From: a virus
Lineage: Duplodnaviria > Caudoviricetes
Virus record (IMG/VR): IMGVR_UViG_3300033153_006964
Span: 1-39,157 of that record
DNA length: 39,157 bases
Direction: 5' to 3' (one strand)
Both the position numbers and the translations under genes were made by a program. Positions 10,791-22,136 of the stretch are shown in pieces. The notes below the pieces were generated by a model. That model made no database searches. It worked only from the letters and a program-made list of their open reading frames with translations, and was not told the DNA's origin. The first letter of the stretch is position 1, and each line of letters begins with the position of its first letter.

Positions 10791-11341
10791 TAAATCTAGA
10801 CAATAAAAAGTTAGAGCAGGGCATTAATGCATTTAATTTACTGCTATCATCGAAGTTCTTGGAAAATATCATAGAGAATAAAGTAGATGAATTTGAATCA
10901 AAACATACAAATGTTTCAAAATATCTTTTATCAACCCTCCTTTCCGAGCTTAAGAACAATTTTCAACCTGTTGTTAAAACCTATAGGCCGTGGAATCGAT
11001 GGTCAAAAGCTTATGCCACTACATACACAGGAAATTATAATTTAATCAAAATCAATTCGAGGCGCTTTAATAGGCCGTGGTATTCTCTAGCGGGAACTGT
11101 TGCTCATGAATGGGGCCACTGCTTTGAATATTTCACAAGAAAGATGTATAAAACATATAAATTTAATCATGGAAACAATTCATCAATAGGAAAAGATAAT
11201 ACTTTTCAATATTGGCTTGGCAGGCAGGTTAAACTAGAGCTGATGAAATATGAATCTTATGACGATTTCTTTAAAGCTTTTTATTCTGGCGAATATAATG
11301 GGTTGAACTTCAATAAACCGATGAGTAGAAGTTGGCTATAA
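10787..11341 (+). CDS. Putative zincin-like metallopeptidase
   Basis: HExxH motif (TVAHEWGH) with a downstream His (FNHG). Confidence 0.6.
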   Translation: MINLDNKKLEQGINAFNLLLSSKFLENIIENKVDEFESKHTNVSKYLLSTLLSELKNNFQPVVKTYRPWNRWSKAYATTYTGNYNLIKINSRRFNRPWYSLAGTVAHEWGHCFEYFTRKMYKTYKFNHGNNSSIGKDNTFQYWLGRQVKLELMKYESYDDFFKAFYSGEYNGLNFNKPMSRSWL

Positions 11342-11507
11342 GGTGCTTATTTATTATTTCCGTAACAGCATTATATTTGATCTATTATGCTAACGACTTC
11401 ATAAAAGCCTTCGATATTTGACTAATCATATTTTCTATTTGAAACTATAGTTAATTCAAGGATGAATTGAGTGCGCGCACATTTTTTAACTATTAGGACT
11501 GATAGAA

Positions 11508-12077
11508 ATGACTTCAAAGAAAAATTCTTTAATTAAGCCTAAATTGACTCCTAAGCAAGAGACCTTCTGTCTAGAATATCTAAAAGATTTAAATGCAACT
11601 CAAGCAGCAATTCGAGCTGGATACTCAGAAAAAACAGCCAGACATATAGCATCTCAAAACTTGGCGAAACTTAACATCCAGCATCAAATCCAAAAACTAA
11701 ATAACACAAGAATTAAAGAAGTCAAAGTAGACGCTAACTTCGTACTTGATGAGCTGCACAAACTCGCTAATTCAAATGTTGCAGAAATGTTTGACGACAA
11801 GGGCGTACTTATGCACATCAAACAAATGCCTGAGCATATCCAGAAATCTATACAATCTTTTGACATAGAAGAAGAGCATAAGGTTGATGGAGCAGGCGAA
11901 ATAGTTGTCACAACAAAAATGATAAGAGTAAAGCTTTGGAGTAAGGATAGAGCAATCGAAAACTTAGGAAAACACCTTAGGTTATTCATCGAGAAGGTTG
12001 AGCACAGCAACCCTGATGGAACTCTCCAGCCACAAATAACGGTATACTTGCCAGCAAATAATCGAGAGAAGAAATGA
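11508..12077 (+). CDS. terS: Terminase small subunit
   Basis: LTPKQETFCLEYLKDLNATQAAIRAGYSEKTA signature and KDRAIENLGKHL. Confidence 0.95.
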   Translation: MTSKKNSLIKPKLTPKQETFCLEYLKDLNATQAAIRAGYSEKTARHIASQNLAKLNIQHQIQKLNNTRIKEVKVDANFVLDELHKLANSNVAEMFDDKGVLMHIKQMPEHIQKSIQSFDIEEEHKVDGAGEIVVTTKMIRVKLWSKDRAIENLGKHLRLFIEKVEHSNPDGTLQPQITVYLPANNREKK

Positions 12078-12169
12078 GTGAATATGTCCTTGTGTGTTAT
12101 TTTTTAGGAATATTGTGCGGGTTTATATTGGGTAAGCTGTGGTATGGGAGTTGGGACGATAATGAGTGA
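12074..12169 (+). CDS. Small single-pass membrane peptide (31 aa, not in ORF track)
   Basis: MSEYVLVCYFLGILCGFILGKLWYGSWDDNE, ATGA-coupled to terS. Confidence 0.45.
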   Translation: MSEYVLVCYFLGILCGFILGKLWYGSWDDNE

Positions 12170-12383
12170 TAAAATATGCAGATTAGTAAAGACAATCAAG
12201 AAAGACTATCAGTGGGTTAAGTTTATCTTACCTGATGCTAGAGAGATAAGGTTTTTAGTAAGGGATGATAAGTGTGGCGATAAAAAGAAAAGCAAACTCA
12301 TAATCGATTGTCCGATTGAAACTAAAATAGAATTTGAAGATAACGATAGGTTTGAACTTCCTGACAATATAGGGAACTGTTAA
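12162..12383 (+). CDS. Hypothetical protein, faint CsrA-like pattern
   Basis: GGGAG RBS, beta-rich, KLIIDCPIETKIEFED. Confidence 0.5.
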   Translation: MSDKICRLVKTIKKDYQWVKFILPDAREIRFLVRDDKCGDKKKSKLIIDCPIETKIEFEDNDRFELPDNIGNC

Positions 12384-12385
12384 GT

Positions 12386-12898
12386 ATGGAGAATAATATG
12401 GAAGAGATATGGAGGGATATAGCAGGATATGAGGGAATTTATCAAGTGAGCAATCTTGGGAGTGTGAGAAATAGCGATAAACTTATTCTTAAGCAACAGA
12501 TTTTTAATGGTTATATGAACATAGGATTATCAAAAAATTGTTACAAGAAAAGATTCTTTACTCATAGGCTAGTAGCAAGTGCCTTTGTTGCGAAAATAAA
12601 GGGCAAAAATATTGTAAACCACAAAGATTTTAATAAGACCAACAATAATCATGAGAATCTTGAATTTTGCACTCAAAAAGAAAATATTAATCATGCAATT
12701 AGTGCGGGAAGGTTTTATTTTAATCACAAGGACAAGATTATAGATATCCCTGATGAAATTATCAACAGGCTTGGTTCGTGTTGCGACAGAGAGCTTGCAG
12801 AGATAGCCGGGGTAGATAGGAAGACAATTGGAAACAGAAGGGCAGCTCTAGGAATAAAATCATATGCTGAAAAAAGAAAAGAAAGGAAGCAATTGTGA
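12386..12898 (+). CDS. Free-standing NUMOD4-HNH homing endonuclease (start possibly 12398)
   Basis: NUMOD4 EIWRDIAGYEGIYQVSNLGSVR, HNH HRLVA...VNHKDFNKTNNNHENLEFCTQKENINHA, and a C-terminal HTH-like DRELAEIAGVDRKTI. Confidence 0.92.
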   Translation: MENNMEEIWRDIAGYEGIYQVSNLGSVRNSDKLILKQQIFNGYMNIGLSKNCYKKRFFTHRLVASAFVAKIKGKNIVNHKDFNKTNNNHENLEFCTQKENINHAISAGRFYFNHKDKIIDIPDEIINRLGSCCDRELAEIAGVDRKTIGNRRAALGIKSYAEKRKERKQL

Positions 12899-12918
12899 AA
12901 AACAATAAAGGGGGTAAT

Positions 12919-14383
12919 ATGGAATCACAGGAAAATGCTTTGCGCATAGCTCCTCAAGATGGGCCGCAAACAGAATTCTTAAGTAGTGTCGCTGATATAG
13001 CGATTTACGGTGGTTCCGCATAAAGAGGGTGGAGGCAAGACCTATGGGATGCTATTAGATCCCCTTAGGCATGTAAATACTACCCCAGGTGGCGGAGCTG
13101 TATATTTTAGAAAAACAACAACACAAATACGTAATGAAGGTGGGTTATTTCAGGAAGCGTGTGATCTTTACATGAAGCTTGGCGGAGTGCCAAGGCAAAG
13201 TCCTAGTATGGACATAACATTTCCGCACCCGACAAACGCAAATAAAAATGGCTTTAAAGTCACATTCTCTCATCTTCAGCATGAGAAAGATAAATATAAT
13301 TGGCAAGGCGCGCAAATTCCAATTATTTACATGGATGAATTGACTCATTTCTCGCGTAGCCAATTTTTTTATTTAGTAGGTAGAAATAGATCTACATGCG
13401 GAATTGATCCGTACGTTAGAGCGACGTGCAATCCAGACAAAACCTCGTGGGTTCGAGACTTTATTGACTATTGGATAGACTCTGATGGCTGGGCCATACC
13501 AGAGAGGTCTGGGAAATTAAGATGGCTTTGCGTATTTGACGACAAAGACCATTGGTTTGACTCAAAAGAAGAAGCGCTTGAATCTTTTCCTAACATCCCG
13601 CCAATGTCGATTACCTTTATATTGTCACGTCTAAAGGACAATAAAATACTTATGGATAGAGATCCTGGATATTTGGCAAAATTAAAATCGCTTTCAAAGG
13701 TAGAGAGAGAGCGCTTATTGGGCGATGAGGAGCGTGGAGGCAATTGGCAGATCGTACCTGCTGCAGGAATGTACTTTAAGCGGCATTATTTTGAAGAAGT
13801 TGATCATCTTCCAAACTTTATTGAAGTTGTCAGATGTTGGGACAGAGCAGCAACAGAGCATAACCCTGGTGATGCAGGCGATCCCGATTGGACTGTTGGC
13901 GTTAAGATGGGGCGAACATATGACAATGAGTTTGTCGTATTGGACGTAGAGCGTCAGAGATTGTCAGCAGGTAAAGTCTCGAGACTGATACTAAACACAG
14001 CACGGCAAGATGGCGTAAACGTCAAAATCAAAGGCTTTCAGGATCCGGGGAGTGCAGGAAAAGGCGAGGCAGAGGCATTTGTCAAGATGCTGTCTGGGTT
14101 TAACGTAACAACCGAAAGAATATCAATCAATAAAGAGACTGCTGCACTGCCTTTGTCAGCTCAGGCCGAGAATAATAACGTCAAGGTGTTGACTTCCTGT
14201 AGAAATAAAGAATACTTCTATGATGAGCTTGAAAATTTTCCTGATGATTCTCATGATGATATTGTTGACGGAGCTAGTGGAGCTTTCAATGAATTAAACT
14301 CTGGTAATGTTGGAGAGTTTACAGATAAATTTAATCAAAGTAGCATTAGACAAGATAATCAAACTTTAAAAGATGTGTGGTAA
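12919..14383 (+). CDS. terL: Terminase large subunit, interrupted by a 7-nt insert at 13021..13027 (485 aa if skipped)
   Basis: GGGGG RBS and ATG 12919 give MESQENALRIAPQDGPQTEFLSSVADIAIYGGSA-stop. The +1 frame continues GGGKTYGMLLD, Walker B IYMDE, ATCNP, nuclease CWDRA and HDDIVD. Confidence 0.9.
13021..13027 (+). other. 7-nt coding gap TAAAGAG in the terL Walker A motif (candidate recoding site or artefact)
   Basis: GGT GGT TCC GCA [TAAAGAG] GGT GGA GGC AAG ACC. Removing the insert restores GGSAGGGKT. Confidence 0.85.
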
Positions 14384-14385
14384 AG

Positions 14386-15798
14386 ATGGGCATATTAGAT
14401 TTTTTCTCAAGAGACCAAAAGAAAGACGAAAGTGAAGCTGAAACAAAAGTTATAAATGAAATAGTAATTCAAGAAAGATCAAGAGGTACATCGGGAACTG
14501 AGGTTTTTGCTGGTTACTATGACGAAGAATATCTTGAGTTAATGAAAAGCACTGACAGGGCCAAAGAATTCGACAGAATGAGAAGGTCTGACTCTCAGGT
14601 CAAAATGCTTATCTCTTCGGCTGTTAATCCGATTAGGACTGCCTCAAGAGAGATCGTTTCAGCGTCAGATGATGCGGAGCATGAGAAGCATGCAGCCCTT
14701 TGTAGGCAAGTACTATTTAAAGACATAAGATTTACCAAGTTCCTTGGCGAGGCAGCTAACGGCCTTGTAATACATGGGCACGTACTGCACGAAAAGGTTC
14801 ACAGGGTAAATGTTGACAAGCCAATCACTGATGATGATGGCAACTTAGTCTTAAACTCATACATAGGGCTAAAGAAGCTTGGATGGCGAAGTCAGAAGAC
14901 CATTGAAACCTGGAATTTTAATGAAGAGAAAGAATTTGAATCAATTACTCAGCAAGCAGATGGAGACTTAGATTCTTACGTTGATATCCCACAAAAGCAT
15001 TTGATGGTTATGACACTAGACTATGAGGGTGACAACCTGGAAGGCATCTCAATGCTTAGGCCGTGCTACGGTAACTACTATAGAAAGAATGTTTATCTAA
15101 AATTAAATGCAATTGGTATCGAGAAATCAATGCCAATACCAACAGCTGAAGTGCCTGCGGGCCAAGAGCATTCAGCTCAATTTGATCAGCTAATTAATGC
15201 ATTATCGGCCTTCACAACACACCAAAAGAATTATTTAATATATCCAGCGGGGTGGAATGTTCAACTTAATAGCGGAACAAACTATGATCCTGCAAAGGTT
15301 GAGCAATCAATAGACAATGAAGACAAACGAATGGCCAAGGCTTTTCTTGCTAACTTCCTAGAACTTGGGATGTCAGGCGGTGGCGGTAGTGGATCGTATG
15401 CAATGTCTAACGATCTATCGGACTTCTTTTTGGCTGGAATAATGATTTTTGCTGAAATAATTAAAGAAGAAATTGATGAGCTATTGAAAGAAATTGTAAT
15501 ACTTAACTTTGGTGAGCAAGATAAGTACCCAGAGTTTAAATTCTCAGGAATTAAAGACAAAGCTGGTGCAGAATTTGCTAAAGTAATGGATCTAATGATT
15601 AAAAGTAAAGTTATTATTCCAGATGATAATCTTGAAAAACATGTAAGAAAAAGAATCGGTGTTACCGAGAAATCAGACGAGGGCCAGCGTGATATTGAGC
15701 CAGAAAAAGAAGTGCCGATAGACGCTGCCCCCTTGTCTTTATCTGAAAAGATAGGGTTTGCAATTAAAGAGAAGAGAAAATTGCTAGGGGATGAATAG
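14386..15798 (+). CDS. Portal protein (Mu gp29 / DUF935-like)
   Basis: Follows terL, ~470 aa. FDRMRRSDSQV, GISMLRPCY, GSYAMS and FGEQDKYPEFKF patterns. Confidence 0.85.
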   Translation: MGILDFFSRDQKKDESEAETKVINEIVIQERSRGTSGTEVFAGYYDEEYLELMKSTDRAKEFDRMRRSDSQVKMLISSAVNPIRTASREIVSASDDAEHEKHAALCRQVLFKDIRFTKFLGEAANGLVIHGHVLHEKVHRVNVDKPITDDDGNLVLNSYIGLKKLGWRSQKTIETWNFNEEKEFESITQQADGDLDSYVDIPQKHLMVMTLDYEGDNLEGISMLRPCYGNYYRKNVYLKLNAIGIEKSMPIPTAEVPAGQEHSAQFDQLINALSAFTTHQKNYLIYPAGWNVQLNSGTNYDPAKVEQSIDNEDKRMAKAFLANFLELGMSGGGGSGSYAMSNDLSDFFLAGIMIFAEIIKEEIDELLKEIVILNFGEQDKYPEFKFSGIKDKAGAEFAKVMDLMIKSKVIIPDDNLEKHVRKRIGVTEKSDEGQRDIEPEKEVPIDAAPLSLSEKIGFAIKEKRKLLGDE

Positions 15799-16253: not shown

Positions 16254-19200
16254 ATGTCAGACATTGACTTAACCAAGAAAGCAGAGCCCGCAGATGGTGA
16301 TTGTCCAGCAGGATCATTAATCGTTTGGGCCGATGATACCGACGATACATTAAAATCTAAAGATGGTGATACTAAAGAAGTATTATCTTATGGTGATACC
16401 AAGAAGCTTCTTGTAAGCAGCGACGACACCACTGAGAACTATCTCGAAAATAAAATCTCGGCAGGAACCAACATATCCATTGCAACAACGAGCCCCGGGG
16501 GTGATGAGACAGTTGAAATAAGCACAAACATTACTGACGTTGACTATGCCATTGTAAACATAACAAATAAGATTGGTGATCCGTCTCACATTGACACGCT
16601 TGATGAAGTACTAAACCACCACTGGAGTGCGGGGGTTGTCCATGATTGTGATATAAGCGATAACTCAGATGGCTCCGTCGCTACAGGTAGTGGTTACGCG
16701 ATGCTAAGACCAGCAGCAAGTCCACACGCGACATTAACCTCCGTCGAGGTAAGCGCACAAACACCAATAAGTTTAACGAATAATTCCACAAACTATATAT
16801 ACCTTGACTACAACTCAGGATCACCACAGTTCGTAGCTTCAACATCACAAGCAAGTTTTAATTGCCTTGATAAATGTTTAACTTATATTGTTCATAGAGA
16901 AGATAACGACTTAGATATTATTAATGTTTCAGAACAGACCGTTGATGGGAATAGAAAAACAAGAGTAAGGTGGCTCAATACTCTAAGGTTCGCTCACTCA
17001 GAGGGTGGATCAATTTTAGGAGAATCAGGAACGAGGAATGTCACGCTAACGGCAGGGGCTTTCTGGTTTATGCTGACAGAAATAGACCACACTGCATTTG
17101 ATACGAGCGCTGCAGATACGTTCACGTATTACTATCATGTATCTGGTGTAATGACGGCAACCGCAAGTCAAACACAAATAAATAATACCCAATATGATTC
17201 TGGTACGGACATGATTACAATGACTAACAATCGTTATAGGGTGGATGATGTATACATAATTAACAATGAGCCGAGTTCCCTTGCAATCATAGCGGGACAA
17301 GCAGAGTATGCTTCACTATCAGGAGCGCAGGCAGCAGATCTTGCGCCGATAACTCACCCTAGAATTACCGGGATGGGCTCTTTAGTTGGGAGGATAATTA
17401 TTCTGAGAGACGCAGCATCATTTGCTGATGTATTAAGCGCCTTCGAGCAAGTATTCTCAGGATCAACACCATCGAATCATGAAAACTTAGCAGGGCTACT
17501 GGGTGGGGCTGCTGCAGATCACTTTCATTTAACAACAGCACAACATACAATCGCAACGCAACCTGCAACCGGGTCTGTTGATGGATACACAACAACATCT
17601 GCACAGACATTTGCTGGTAACAAAACATTTAACGACTCTCTTGGTATTGGTGTAACTCCTACTCACCAATTTCATACACTACTTACAAGCGAAGACAATT
17701 TCTTTATAGATGGTAGAAGTAGTTTGCGCAACATCACACTGGGAGCTATAAGGCAATCTCATTCTCCACAAATACCAGGAACAAGAGCATATCATTTTGA
17801 CATTAGAAGCAACGGTCAAGATGATACAAGAGCGATTGTCATTAGGCATGACCTAGAGGGTGGGACTGAAACCATTAGACCTAAGTGTATGTCATTATCT
17901 GCAGAGGTGACTGGCGCAACGAATTACCACTTCAATATGATTGAATTTGATAAGTCAGGAGATGTTGACGCATCGGCGGCTATAGATGCCATAGAAATAA
18001 GAGGTGGGATAAACCCAATACATCATCTTTCAGGAACACCAGATAATATAGAGAGTGCATTTAAAGAAGATAGTGGCTTCACAGACGTCACAGGTGCTTT
18101 TGCGTCCAGCGGCTCCAACGTCGCCTTGTTCGAAAACGATAATTCGTATATTTACATCGGGCAAGCAGTACAATACGAGGCTATAGAAATCAATCTCGGA
18201 ACCGTTGCGTCCGGCGCGGGAATAGTTCCAGTGTTTGAATACAGTCAAGGATCATCTGTATGGGAAACAGTGGCCATGTCAGATGGAACAAATGGCCTGA
18301 GAGAGTCAGGCGATCTGGTTTTTGAACCACCAACTCTATGGGCCGTTGACACAGTAAACTCTGTTAGCAACAAGTACTGGATTCGGATTCAACGAACAGC
18401 CGATACATTAGCAACTGCACCGATTGAGAGTACAATCAAGGTAATTTCCCCAGATACTTATGGGTGGGATTTAGACGGCGAGGTTGTCGTTAGAAATGTT
18501 ATATCGAATGGGACTGAATCAAGTTCATTTGGTGGTGATGTTACAATTTCAGGATCAACCGGAATGGGCGTGACTCCTACTCATCATGTACATGTAGAGT
18601 TGCCGGGTGATGACAATGTCTATATTGATGGAACTACACCGAGAACAATAACTAGCGGAGCTATAAAGCAAGATCAAATAGCTGGAACCGATGGAACCAG
18701 AGCTTACTTTATAGACGTTGACTCTAACGGTTTTGACAATGCAAGAGGAATACAAATCAATCACGCCCTTAATGAGAGCACAGCAGATATAAGCCCAACA
18801 AATCTATTGTTGACAGCAGAGGTAAATAACACAGAAAACGCACATGTTCACATGATAGCCTGTACCAAGACTGGTGCAGTTGGGAGTGGAACAGAGATTG
18901 AAGCAATTGAGGTTGGGCTAGGGATTAACCCATTACTGCAAGAGTCAGGATCAATTAGCTCTGCTGATAAAGCTTGGGTGTATGATGGATCATACACAGA
19001 TCGAACAACTGAATTTGGCACATCAGTAAGTAACGTAGAGATCCTAAGTAATGATTTAGATTATATATATGTCTCAAGCTCTTCGGGTACATTTAATTTA
19101 ATTGAGGTAATCCTAGATGTCGTAGCCAGTGAAAACATTTTACCAGTTTTCCAATACTCCCAAGGATCATCTAGCTGGAACACGGTTTCTGTTGCAGATC

Positions 19201-20177
19201 AAACTTCTGGATTTACTTCCAGTGGAATTATCGACATAAGCGATGTGCCGGGTGACTGGGATACTGACACAGTAAACGGCACAGCAGGTTATTGGATACG
19301 TATACAGCGAACCGCTGACACAGTAACAACACCGCCAACAGAACTTACAATTCGCATATCATCGCCAACAGAATTTTTCTGGAATAGCGATGGCGACGTC
19401 TATGTAAACACGCTCACAACTGAATCAACTGTGAACGTAGGTGATCCTGGATTTGAAACATCCGGTGTTAATATAAACGGCACATCTAAGGCAGCAGCAT
19501 TTCGGGTGAACGATTTCGCAGCAGTGTCCCCGTTGATGGCGGTTATTCACAGACACTCAACCACAGAAGAAGCCTCTATCATGTGCATAAGGTCGAAAAG
19601 TGATACAGCATCCCACGGAGCAGTTACAAACGACGATTGCATAATGTCGATAACAGGTGCTGGGTGGACTGGATCGCACTACGATGAATGTGCTAAAATA
19701 GAATTTTGCATAGATTCAACAGGAACCGTTTCAAGCACGAGCTCTCCCGGCAAAATTAGTCTGAAAACAACGCCTGATTCATCAAATACACCAGTAGAAA
19801 GAATGGCAATAGATAGCGTGGGTGATGCTACTTTTGAAAAAAGTGTCGCTGTAAATGGCCAGGCATATTCACTGACAAACACCTTATCAGATGCCGCAAC
19901 AATAGCAACTGACTGCAGCCTTGGAAATGTTCACGAGGTTACAATAACAGCAAATCGAACACTCGGAGCACCGACAAATCTAGTCGATGGCTCAACTTAT
20001 ATTTGGAGAATAATACAAGATGGATCGGGTGGGCATACACTTGCGTTTAACGCCGTGTTTGACTTTGGGGATGCCGGAGCACCAACTATATCATCTGGCA
20101 TAGATAAAATAAGCTATATAACTGGAATATCAGATGGAACAAACATTCATGTCGCTGCGGCACTGGGGTTTAATTAA
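16254..20177 (+). CDS. Large fibre/adhesin-like structural protein with internal ~306-aa duplication
   Basis: 1307 aa, S/T/G/D-rich. QTFAGNKTF fibre motif, two repeats GxGVTPTH...YWIRIQRTADT, C-terminal adaptor-like ANRTLGAPTNL...IIQDGSGGHTL. Confidence 0.7.
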   Translation: MSDIDLTKKAEPADGDCPAGSLIVWADDTDDTLKSKDGDTKEVLSYGDTKKLLVSSDDTTENYLENKISAGTNISIATTSPGGDETVEISTNITDVDYAIVNITNKIGDPSHIDTLDEVLNHHWSAGVVHDCDISDNSDGSVATGSGYAMLRPAASPHATLTSVEVSAQTPISLTNNSTNYIYLDYNSGSPQFVASTSQASFNCLDKCLTYIVHREDNDLDIINVSEQTVDGNRKTRVRWLNTLRFAHSEGGSILGESGTRNVTLTAGAFWFMLTEIDHTAFDTSAADTFTYYYHVSGVMTATASQTQINNTQYDSGTDMITMTNNRYRVDDVYIINNEPSSLAIIAGQAEYASLSGAQAADLAPITHPRITGMGSLVGRIIILRDAASFADVLSAFEQVFSGSTPSNHENLAGLLGGAAADHFHLTTAQHTIATQPATGSVDGYTTTSAQTFAGNKTFNDSLGIGVTPTHQFHTLLTSEDNFFIDGRSSLRNITLGAIRQSHSPQIPGTRAYHFDIRSNGQDDTRAIVIRHDLEGGTETIRPKCMSLSAEVTGATNYHFNMIEFDKSGDVDASAAIDAIEIRGGINPIHHLSGTPDNIESAFKEDSGFTDVTGAFASSGSNVALFENDNSYIYIGQAVQYEAIEINLGTVASGAGIVPVFEYSQGSSVWETVAMSDGTNGLRESGDLVFEPPTLWAVDTVNSVSNKYWIRIQRTADTLATAPIESTIKVISPDTYGWDLDGEVVVRNVISNGTESSSFGGDVTISGSTGMGVTPTHHVHVELPGDDNVYIDGTTPRTITSGAIKQDQIAGTDGTRAYFIDVDSNGFDNARGIQINHALNESTADISPTNLLLTAEVNNTENAHVHMIACTKTGAVGSGTEIEAIEVGLGINPLLQESGSISSADKAWVYDGSYTDRTTEFGTSVSNVEILSNDLDYIYVSSSSGTFNLIEVILDVVASENILPVFQYSQGSSSWNTVSVADQTSGFTSSGIIDISDVPGDWDTDTVNGTAGYWIRIQRTADTVTTPPTELTIRISSPTEFFWNSDGDVYVNTLTTESTVNVGDPGFETSGVNINGTSKAAAFRVNDFAAVSPLMAVIHRHSTTEEASIMCIRSKSDTASHGAVTNDDCIMSITGAGWTGSHYDECAKIEFCIDSTGTVSSTSSPGKISLKTTPDSSNTPVERMAIDSVGDATFEKSVAVNGQAYSLTNTLSDAATIATDCSLGNVHEVTITANRTLGAPTNLVDGSTYIWRIIQDGSGGHTLAFNAVFDFGDAGAPTISSGIDKISYITGISDGTNIHVAAALGFN

Positions 20178-20905
20178 TGTTTACTTTTCCTTTTGCCCTG
20201 CAGAGTGGGGTTGCCTTTATTAATGAGTTCAGTATGGATTTTGACGGTTCAGATGAATACGTTGATTGTGGAAGCATTGCTGATTTTGATTATCAAGATC
20301 CGTTCTCCCTTGCTGCGTGGGTTAAACTAACAGCAAATAGCTTCCATGCGATACTGTCAAAACAGTCAGTAAAGGTTGGATCAACCTCTAGGGGGTGGGT
20401 GTTTTATTTTGATGGAGGTAAGTTGAAATTAATTCACAGAAACGCAATAGGCAACGAGGCGTGGATTGAATCTCAATCGACCTACAATGATGGAGATTGG
20501 CATTTTGTTGTTGCCACATATGATGGAAGCGAAAGCGCTGCAACGGGCATGAAGATATATGTTGACGGAAGCTCTGTTGTAACAACAACAATAGAAGATA
20601 CTTTATCAGCAACAACTCAAATTGGAATAAACTGCAAAATAGGGGTAAGGGACACAAATTTGTACTTTGATGGGAAGATTGACGAGCCCGCAATTTATGA
20701 CAGAGAGTTGTCGTCAGGAGACGTCACAGCACTATATAGCGACACCGTGCCCAAAGATATTAGCACGACAAGCCCTTATGCGTGGTGGAGATTTACACAA
20801 GCAGACAAAGACGGATTTGCAACAATACTAGACCATTCTGGAAATGCAAGAAATGGAACGGCAGTGAATATGGAAAGTTCCGATATAAATGTGGATGTTC
20901 CTTAA
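20177..20905 (+). CDS. LamG / concanavalin A-like lectin domain protein
   Basis: FDGSDEYV, FSLAAWVK, DGDWHFVVATYDG, KIYVDG, FDGKIDEPAIYDRELS. Confidence 0.9.
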   Translation: MFTFPFALQSGVAFINEFSMDFDGSDEYVDCGSIADFDYQDPFSLAAWVKLTANSFHAILSKQSVKVGSTSRGWVFYFDGGKLKLIHRNAIGNEAWIESQSTYNDGDWHFVVATYDGSESAATGMKIYVDGSSVVTTTIEDTLSATTQIGINCKIGVRDTNLYFDGKIDEPAIYDRELSSGDVTALYSDTVPKDISTTSPYAWWRFTQADKDGFATILDHSGNARNGTAVNMESSDINVDVP

Positions 20906-20933
20906 AATAAATACAACAACAAGGATGTAAAAT

Positions 20934-22136
20934 ATGTCAATTTCAGAACCAACAGCAATAGCAATGACTACAGTTTTTGGATATGTATTCGACGATGATG
21001 GTGTCACGCCAATTGAAAATGCTTCAGTTAGGTTTTTATCTAAGTCTTTCATGATTGACGATAATTTAATAAGAATCAATGAAACAGTATTGTCAGATGT
21101 GGACGGTTTATATCAAGCAAGCTTACCCCAAACATCTCCGATAGGTGCTATTGTGAATGTTGAAATTTCCTGGACGGATTCAGACGGTGGCGTTCATGGC
21201 AGAAAAGAAACAATTGCAGTTGGGACAAGCTCGCCTGTTAGTGTTCAAGAATCAAGGGTAGTAACTGTCGGTTCCGCTGTTGTTGGTGCCTCTGGCGGCG
21301 ACGTTGTGGGCCCGGTAGGCGCAACAAATAATGCGTTAGCAAGATTTGACCTGGGCACTGGAAAGCTAATCAAAAACACTGGTGCGATACTGGATAATTC
21401 CAATAATTTATCTGGAATTGGGGACATCGCACTATCAGGAACAGTAGATGGAAGAAATGTCTCTGCCGATGGTACCGCCATAGATTTAAATACAGCAAAA
21501 GATACAAACGCAACGCATACTGGAGAAATAACAGGTGAAACGGCTTTAACGCTAGATAAAACCGCAATTTCAAATAAAGACGTTGTTACGGTTGATGATG
21601 CTGATTATATTTTAATAGAAGACAGCTCTGATGATAGTAATTTGAAAAAAGTACTGGCCTCAGATTTTGGTGGAGGCGGTGGTGGCACTGCCGTAGAGAT
21701 TGCGTACCTCAAAGACGTCCAAGCGAGCGGGGTTGATGGCGGCGATTTTACACAAAATGCATGGCAAACCAGAGTCCTGGGTGTAACATCTGGAGATACT
21801 GGCATCGTGAGTTTATCAACTAATCAATTTACACTACAAGCTGGCACTTATCACATTGAAGCAAGCGCCCCTGCTTATGGTGTAAACCAGCACAAATGTA
21901 AATTGCGAAATATTACCGATTCCACTGATGACATAATTGGATCATCAGAGCAACCAAGTTCCGGGGGTATATCCACTTGCAGTTTCTTGTCCGGGGCGAT
22001 AGTGTTAGCTGGAGAGAAAATTTTTGAACTTCAACACAGGTGCTTAAGCACTAGAAACGGTAATGGGTTTGGTAAAAAATCAACCTTTGGCGTTGATGAG
22101 GTTTATTCGCAGGTAAAAATAACAAAATTATCATAA
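20934..22136 (+). CDS. Fibre-like structural protein with C-terminal beta-sandwich (C1q/TNF-like) head
   Basis: GDVVGPVGATNNALARFDLGTGKLIK fibre motif, Gly hinge, NQFTLQAGTYHIEA. Confidence 0.6.
   Translation: MSISEPTAIAMTTVFGYVFDDDGVTPIENASVRFLSKSFMIDDNLIRINETVLSDVDGLYQASLPQTSPIGAIVNVEISWTDSDGGVHGRKETIAVGTSSPVSVQESRVVTVGSAVVGASGGDVVGPVGATNNALARFDLGTGKLIKNTGAILDNSNNLSGIGDIALSGTVDGRNVSADGTAIDLNTAKDTNATHTGEITGETALTLDKTAISNKDVVTVDDADYILIEDSSDDSNLKKVLASDFGGGGGGTAVEIAYLKDVQASGVDGGDFTQNAWQTRVLGVTSGDTGIVSLSTNQFTLQAGTYHIEASAPAYGVNQHKCKLRNITDSTDDIIGSSEQPSSGGISTCSFLSGAIVLAGEKIFELQHRCLSTRNGNGFGKKSTFGVDEVYSQVKITKLS

Follow-up and report, generated by a model that had tools for sequence, protein, structure and literature searches.

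Why would the large terminase gene (terL) of a tailed phage be broken by seven nucleotides in the middle of its Walker A loop, directly behind the gene of a free-standing HNH endonuclease? This question arises from the stretch of DNA analysed here at its full length, a 39,157-nt tailed-phage contig (in the following "the window") with a G+C content of 38%, in which Pfam and PHROG profiles identify terS, terL, portal, protease, head and tape-measure genes. Comparison with other terL loci leads us to regard it as fairly probable that the endonuclease gene, the short 5' piece of terL and the 7-nt gap constitute a single mobile cassette of the T4 MobA type, with homing by the endonuclease and hopping of the gap by the ribosome both included.

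The interval between terS and terL holds, besides the NUMOD4-HNH gene, two small unknown ORFs (see Table 1 for the main features). One of them (12144-12383, 79 aa), of no known family, ends in ELPDNIGNC, similar to the LPDNxR with which the small terminases of these loci finish, and may be what some earlier event between terS and terL has left behind. Further downstream, three large genes occupy an unusual position between the portal and head genes (16254-22136), coding for a protein of 1307 aa that belongs to no family, a laminin-G protein and a tail-fibre-like protein.

Table 1. Features of the terS-terL region of the window and the evidence for each
Feature	Position	Strand	Evidence
terS, small terminase; upstream limit of the candidate cassette	11508..12077	+	Pfam Terminase_2, E 9e-38
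Free-standing NUMOD4-HNH endonuclease gene, I-HmuI-like	12386..12898	+	Pfam NUMOD4 and HNH_3; 1u3e, E 1e-18
C-terminal HTH module of the HNH protein	12752..12871	+	43% over 40 aa to L002, E 5e-9; alignment
terL 5' piece, 34 codons, with PQxGPQ motif and first half of Walker A	12919..13020	+	ORF reading; match to the L001 N-terminus
Predicted hairpin (7 bp) ahead of the take-off codon	12988..13004	+	RNA fold; z -0.1 relative to synonymous recodings
7-nt coding gap TAAAGAG, stop (TAA) first	13021..13027	+	Sequence; comparison with other gaps
terL 3' frame, GGGKT to nuclease domain, free of internal stops	13028..14383	+	Terminase_6N, E 8e-24; Terminase_6C, E 3e-9; phrog_979, E 2e-134

The reading frame of the endonuclease comprises 170 aa, with a probable start at ATG 12398, which is preceded by GGAG. 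Pfam places NUMOD4 at residues 7-48 (E 7e-12) and HNH_3 at residues 58-100 (E 1e-9), and over residues 9-121 the protein is homologous to I-HmuI, the HNH nickase of SPO1 (PDB 1u3e). The family residues HR, NH, N and NLE..N, including the active-site His and Asn, are all present, and two full-length homologs (P0209, P0210) share 41% identity with it (E 1e-40). Unlike I-HmuI, which is intron-encoded, the window gene is free-standing, and its C-terminal domain did not align with that of the SPO1 enzyme. A first-pass annotation of this DNA had described an intact-looking HNH gene that ends 122 nt upstream of the gap, and coordinates, domains and retained residues confirm this to the nucleotide. 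Likewise, its statement that neither a group I intron core nor an intein surrounds the gene holds: no Rfam family reached its gathering score in the whole window, none appeared at E<=1 in 11000-15000, and no intein domain was found in the window with Pfam.

The 5' piece of terL ends in GGSA, with GCA as take-off codon, and may start as early as an in-frame GTG at 12895, which overlaps the HNH stop. Behind the gap the gene resumes with GGGKT in the +1 frame. The last triplet of the gap, GAG, is the predicted landing codon; it is unmatched to GCA and lies one base from an Ala codon. The nearest relative of the window (L001, 71% aa identity) carries an uninterrupted terL and a methylase gene in place of the HNH gene. 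As 17 of 23 residues match L001 before the gap and 71% are identical after it, the break is not a matter of chance. Two trivial ways around it were rejected: re-initiation finds its first in-frame ATG only behind GKT, and the stops of 6- and 9-nt gaps elsewhere in the family stand in frame right before the remaining loop, while read-through of the stop fails in the window as the gap shifts the frame. The hairpin predicted 5' of the take-off codon is unremarkable against synonymous recodings of the same stretch.

Gaps of this kind recur in the family. Stop-initiated gaps of 5-10 nt in Walker A were found at 45 loci (including the window and one duplicate) representing 28 lineages of this terL family, i.e. 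about 1.3% of alleles if the 28 are set against an estimated 2200 or so intact viral matches. Pattern scans for a lengthened Walker A returned gapped terL in 14/17 and 14/16 matches from viral contigs and in 12/17 from metagenomes; the same scan of GTDB gave 23 matches, namely three gapped and two intact terL and 18 unrelated genes, which were dropped. The gaps occupy all three frames, with 11 of the 28 lineages having in-frame gaps of 6 or 9 nt, and always have the stop first (TAG 12, TGA 9, TAA 7). They follow the Ala codon in five lineages and the first, second or third Gly codon of the loop in two, eight and 13, respectively. In 26 of the 28 the gap ends with an extra codon for the amino acid that precedes the stop (17 identical codons), a proportion inflated by the scan pattern, which demanded a Gly codon before Lys and so missed unmatched gaps such as that of L366; this last gap, found through the HTH search described below, has an unmatched landing and an open 3' frame. 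The two unmatched landings among the 28, in the window and in L004 (GCT to GTT), are each one base away from an Ala codon, and three of the five lineages that take off at Ala land on Ala codons. Among the 60 of 1061 records listed for an intact terL bait in the annotated phage collection, all had terL in one piece as annotated.

The 3' frames of the gapped lineages contain no early stop, and in L009/L028/L170 dN/dS is about 0.02 in both terL pieces at a pS of 0.4-0.6, with the gap kept; take-off and landing codons differ at the third base yet stay Gly. Open frames and the purifying selection seen in the low dN/dS together indicate that the gapped genes are alive. A FastTree tree of 126 rows has 19 changes of gap state. 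Four loci whose Walker A contains one additional base (L007, L025, L182, L188; with an HNH gene upstream in L025) were not scored as gaps, L025 and L182 being coded as ungapped in the tree and L007 and L188 excluded; the extra bases could be sequencing errors or +1 frameshift alleles. Sequences resembling the start of an intein (CFGKDTLV; ALDTQIPTPSGW-like) stand in or right after Walker A in L266 (1016-1180), L007 (79-200) and L188, putatively a third kind of insert at this site.

From these features we infer that the two pieces of a gapped terL must be joined by a frame-independent event in codon register, for which a short ribosome hop is the best fit. RNA structure in the 60 nt ahead of the gap is stronger than in intact genes (median z -1.0 vs -0.1, p 3e-4), and z falls below -2 in 8 of 28 gapped and 0 of 75 intact lineages; shuffles gave the same result, but the window itself stands at -0.1. 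A downstream control stretch revealed no difference in structure between gapped and intact genes (p 0.62), nor did 3' structure or the strength of SD-like sequences (p 0.88), and Rfam had no match in nine gapped loci. The window gap, being 7 nt long, could alternatively be read by a +1 frameshift at the stop, with the P-loop gaining two residues: GAG does not match GCA, no stop interrupts the +1 frame within the gap, and a GGTGGT hexamer ends 6 nt upstream of the stop, at the same distance as in the RF2 signal (PMC10732093). This we hold to be improbable, as tRNA-Ala on GCA would be unable to re-pair at CAT and the gaps of the family are spread over all three frames, as a single kind of hop would allow and a single kind of frameshift would not. 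The equal SD-like strength of gapped and intact genes also speaks against it, as does the P-loop, which has extra residues in none of the intact sample, where its length was fixed by the search pattern.

It is more conceivable, albeit still unlikely, that the cassette is real in the family while the copy in the window is decayed or misread, a single substitution at the landing triplet (or an error of assembly) having killed or nearly killed terL and left a defective phage. GAG is a single base from an Ala codon, on which most of the Ala class lands; the seven gap bases are known from one assembly, the window has no terminal repeat, which would mark a whole genome, and no integrase was seen among the 27 + 17 window proteins scanned. 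Unmatched landings that are one base off are, however, also present ahead of open 3' frames in L004 and L366, latitude in P-site re-pairing has been reported (Manning and Atkins, 10.1101/2022.08.31.505936), and both the 3' frame and the active-site residues of the HNH are intact in the window. A working hop remains our preferred reading of the window gap.

If gap and endonuclease belong together, they should co-occur, and the first-pass annotation had suggested examining related phages for this. A nuclease or its remnant lies upstream of terL in 10 of 28 gapped but only 2 of 74 intact lineages (Fisher p 2.7e-5). These are NUMOD4-HNH genes in the window, L004, L008, L012 and L193, HNH_3 genes of another type in L022 and L026, a GIY-YIG-like enzyme in L024, and two remnants, namely a cut-off gene end in L010 and, as in decaying MobA, an internally deleted nuclease in L002. 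In the window's own class, with take-off at Ala, all five lineages have an HNH gene upstream. The intact sample consisted of 83 loci with at least 550 nt of upstream sequence; our own profiles detected no upstream nuclease in any of them, and Pfam found two nuclease-like genes among their 108 ORFs (L061, L071), both in a distant clade, so that none of the intact lineages within the gap-holding clade has one. When corrected for the tree, the link keeps its direction without being significant: of 12 independent pairs, 4.1 had the nuclease with the gap, 0.0 showed the opposite and 7.9 no difference (median p 0.125). The expected co-occurrence thus stands as an enrichment at gapped genes and not as a one-to-one pairing, with 18 of the 28 gapped lineages having no upstream nuclease according to our profiles and ORF reading, complemented by Pfam on the ORFs of nine. 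The same pairing of nuclease and gap in many unrelated phages makes it likely that they move together as a single selfish element. Between the previous gene and the HNH start, three gapped loci (L193:560-690, L004:990-1090 and just 5' of the HNH gene in L012) have short, structured-looking elements that resemble one another, with a GAAAAG purine run followed by CCTGC; they have no Rfam match.

That the HNH protein is a packaging cofactor like gp74 of HK97, unrelated to the gap, we consider the remotest of the explanations weighed here. The gene does belong to the packaging operon, and a possible start of terL overlaps its stop codon; yet it is not conserved in the packaging module of relatives, being absent from L001 and from 72/74 intact lineages, it is I-HmuI-like, and in related cassettes the catalytic domain is swapped or deleted.

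The marker of the candidate cassettes is another part of the enzyme. The last 50 residues of the window protein match a domain encoded upstream of gapped terL, an HTH that is common to the HNH_3 and GIY-YIG nucleases preceding broken Walker A loops, while only one weak match (L105) was found before intact terL in the sample. The first-pass annotation had pointed to the upstream HNH as the partner of the insert. The NUMOD4-HNH part has to be replaced in this role by the C-terminal HTH: 72 NUMOD4-HNH relatives lack the HTH and none of them (0/72) stands at this terL, and among 79 HNH_3 relatives only the seed has it. The HTH was then used alone as bait, i.e. irrespective of any terL information. 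A first search returned 12 loci, eight of them seeds, with three distinct new ones, in which GIY-YIG-like enzymes directly precede terL genes only 24-28% like L001; their Walker A loops are broken by a matched 6-nt gap and by stop-containing inserts of 21 and 66 nt. A second search gave nine loci, of which four were new and three distinct, namely one gapped terL (L366) and two lineages with no terL match within 2 kb (L370/371, L372). In total, the bait led to six new lineages, four before a broken Walker A, none before an intact one and two elsewhere. The longer in-frame inserts at L349 (66 nt) and L351 (21 nt), whose stop comes only after other codons, are possible intermediates between long and micro gaps. 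In L366 (44-1060) the GIY-YIG and HTH gene continues, before the gapped terL, into a segment that looks like a fragment of an IS5-type transposase.

The domain also has a wider distribution. Of 120 proteins from an HTH protein search 74 have the HTH, 54 of these together with HNH and 18 with GIY-YIG. It forms a broad repeat family of 4233 clusters and, being found in thousands of repeat proteins, is not exclusive to cassettes. The HTH region of the window matched only itself in a set of 5.8 billion, an Atlas search with the HTH gave no match at 0.9, and the HTH of L026 had no match in the annotated phage collection.

Two sets of loci show the footprint of a cassette that supplies its own terL 5' end. 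In L022 an old terL start has been left upstream, fused in frame to the HNH gene at the GG codons of Walker A, and a second, different terL start with a gap comes after the HNH gene. In the comparison of L010 (gap, HTH) with L038 (intact), 58/84 nt of the 5' piece are identical (69%; third positions 9/28), as against 71-86 of 90 nt after the gap (about 90%; third positions 81/100). Both fit the homR pattern described for MobA (10.1101/2022.08.31.505936). No leftover upstream copy of the terL 5' end was found in the window, nor is there a close intact relative (nearest 71% aa) that would delimit its cassette.

The same HTH leads to cultured phages. Vibrio phage 1.170.O encodes a GIY-YIG enzyme with three copies of the domain, weakly matched by the HTH of the window, and this gene precedes a terL with a group I intron in Walker A (Rfam E 6e-15). 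Vibrio phage 1.187.O is arranged alike, with GIY-YIG and HTH and a Walker A intron; its terL (L363, MG592553.1 61949-64223) is annotated as four pieces, the first break being this intron. In ICP1 an intron lies at the same place of Walker A behind a T5orf172 enzyme; it is spliced in the RNA and has been described as a case of collaborative homing (Barth 2023, PMC10448857). ICP1 thus resembles the window in that a free-standing endonuclease is encoded right ahead of a short 5' exon of terL and an insert lies in the Walker A loop; it differs in that its insert, about 250 nt long and located one codon earlier, is a group I intron removed by splicing, and the enzyme is of T5orf172 type, while it is the ICP1-related Vibrio phages whose GIY-YIG enzymes have the window's HTH. 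These introns behind nucleases with the same HTH raise the idea of the gap as a micro-intron, or as what is left of a group I intron, excised from the RNA by a trans-acting factor. We think this very improbable, given that Rfam finds no intron core in the window and the known introns insert one codon earlier; codon register, a stop as first codon and an end coding for the same amino acid would be unneeded for splicing, and the gap ends lack a splice consensus.

Two further homologs occur in the cultured phages eugene 12A10 and 424E50-1. In Vibrio phage helene 12B3 a GIY-YIG gene with this HTH stands directly before an intact GGAAGSGKS loop, and L319 has an HNH gene lacking the HTH before an intact, distant terL. 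The co-mobile cassette proposed in the first-pass annotation is therefore upheld in part: the HTH finds broken loops and L022 and L010/L038 bear footprints, as opposed to the nucleases beside intact loops in helene 12B3 and L319. The latter cases, along with L061 and L071, also favour the view that homing endonucleases generally use the terS-terL junction as a landing pad, where the HNH enzyme would cut nearby (at the end of terS or the start of terL) and the gap would hitch-hike or be independent. Endonuclease genes are often found near terminases (Barth 2023, PMC10448857), and the many gaps that have no nuclease agree with this as well. It is nevertheless rather unlikely, since intact lineages of the gap-holding clade have no nuclease and the two positives of the sample belong to a distant clade, the fusion point in L022 lies exactly at the Walker A GG codons, and among metagenomic lineages the HTH-only bait hit four broken and no intact loops, compared with a share of about 1.3% for gapped alleles.

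The closest known counterpart of a cassette such as we propose is MobA with gene 60 of T4, where, as in the terL family, the nuclease decays, is lost or is replaced by a GIY-YIG enzyme while the gap stays (10.1101/2022.08.31.505936). Common to T4 and the terL elements are an HNH gene, a target copy borne by the element (seen in L022 and L010/L038), a stop-initiated gap at a codon for Gly or a small residue of an invariant motif, and, across the family, matched or wobble pairs of take-off and landing codons (26/28, biased by the pattern); the window shares with the MobA type a free-standing endonuclease directly 5' of the gapped frame and a stop right after the take-off codon. In T4 the target is a topoisomerase and the gap measures 50 nt, unlike the 5-10 nt in terL; the terL element replaces the whole short 5' end and hence creates no split protein with added tails, and inside the terL gaps there is neither a long stem-loop nor a mini-SD. 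Moreover, the landing codon in the window is unmatched (GCA vs GAG). With another target, a 7-nt gap, no tails and an unmatched landing, the window would work like MobA/gene 60 and yet not be a member of that system.

Short gaps in terL have been described before. In Streptomyces phage Hau3 and a prophage, gaps of 7 and 10 nt are bypassed according to mass spectrometry (PMC10732093); one of them lies just before the Lys of GWGK, which looks P-loop-like to us. That terL belongs to another family, and its bypass is triggered by the rare codon UUA and interpreted as a sensor of host stage, a feature the window lacks, given that its gap begins with TAA in a genome of 38% G+C; the passages on Hau3 in that paper draw no link to an endonuclease. 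In laboratory constructs of E. coli, matching codons on both sides of a stop lead to low-level skipping that requires no other signals (PMC5009743, 10.1101/2024.12.09.627546), and a 2016 review states that natural in-frame stop hops were not known (PMC5009743). Unlike these synthetic constructs, the 6- and 9-nt gaps of the 11 terL lineages are natural. We found no paper in the open-access literature on an endonuclease combined with a short bypass in terL, and supplements could list further cases. The earlier remark that no terminase case had been described accordingly holds for this combination, and has to be amended for its parts by the Hau3 bypass (PMC10732093) and the ICP1 terL intron with its endonuclease (PMC10448857). 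New here are the shared HTH, the reverse search from the HTH to broken loops, and the bridge to intron-bearing Vibrio phages.

The cut site, immunity and hop of the window cassette are predicted from sequence, and we envisage them as follows. The endonuclease would cut or nick the Walker A codons of a gap-free terL in a co-infecting phage, and repair would copy in the nuclease together with the new terL start, whose gap would spoil the cut site and block re-cutting. Ribosomes would hop the gap at low efficiency to yield whole TerL: peptidyl-tRNA-Ala would leave GCA at the slow stop and re-pair at GAG, so that translation resumes at GGT. After decay or loss of the nuclease the gap would persist, because only a precise deletion could remove it and little TerL, a low-copy motor subunit, may be needed. 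A wider generalisation is more doubtful. It holds that a family of homing endonucleases has one swappable HTH in common, by which Gly-rich Walker A codons are recognised even in terL families far apart, and that the smallest protective inserts known are natural stop-hops of 5-10 nt, skipped even if the landing codon does not match. Longer gaps or a group I intron could take their place at the same loop, and after loss of the nuclease they would be retained to restrain terminase output.

Very few genes are known in which ribosomes bypass productively, and gene 60 of T4 is the only one tied to a homing endonuclease. If our reading is true, terL would add another, independent target, in dozens of lineages and with gaps a tenth as long, and the terL of about 1% of this phage family would be mis-annotated as truncated or dead. 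The enzymes would be nickases or nucleases with a predicted and conserved target, and the matched, wobble and unmatched landings would form a natural series for the requirements of a minimal hop. Immunity to endonucleases would then be a recurring origin of ribosomal bypassing.
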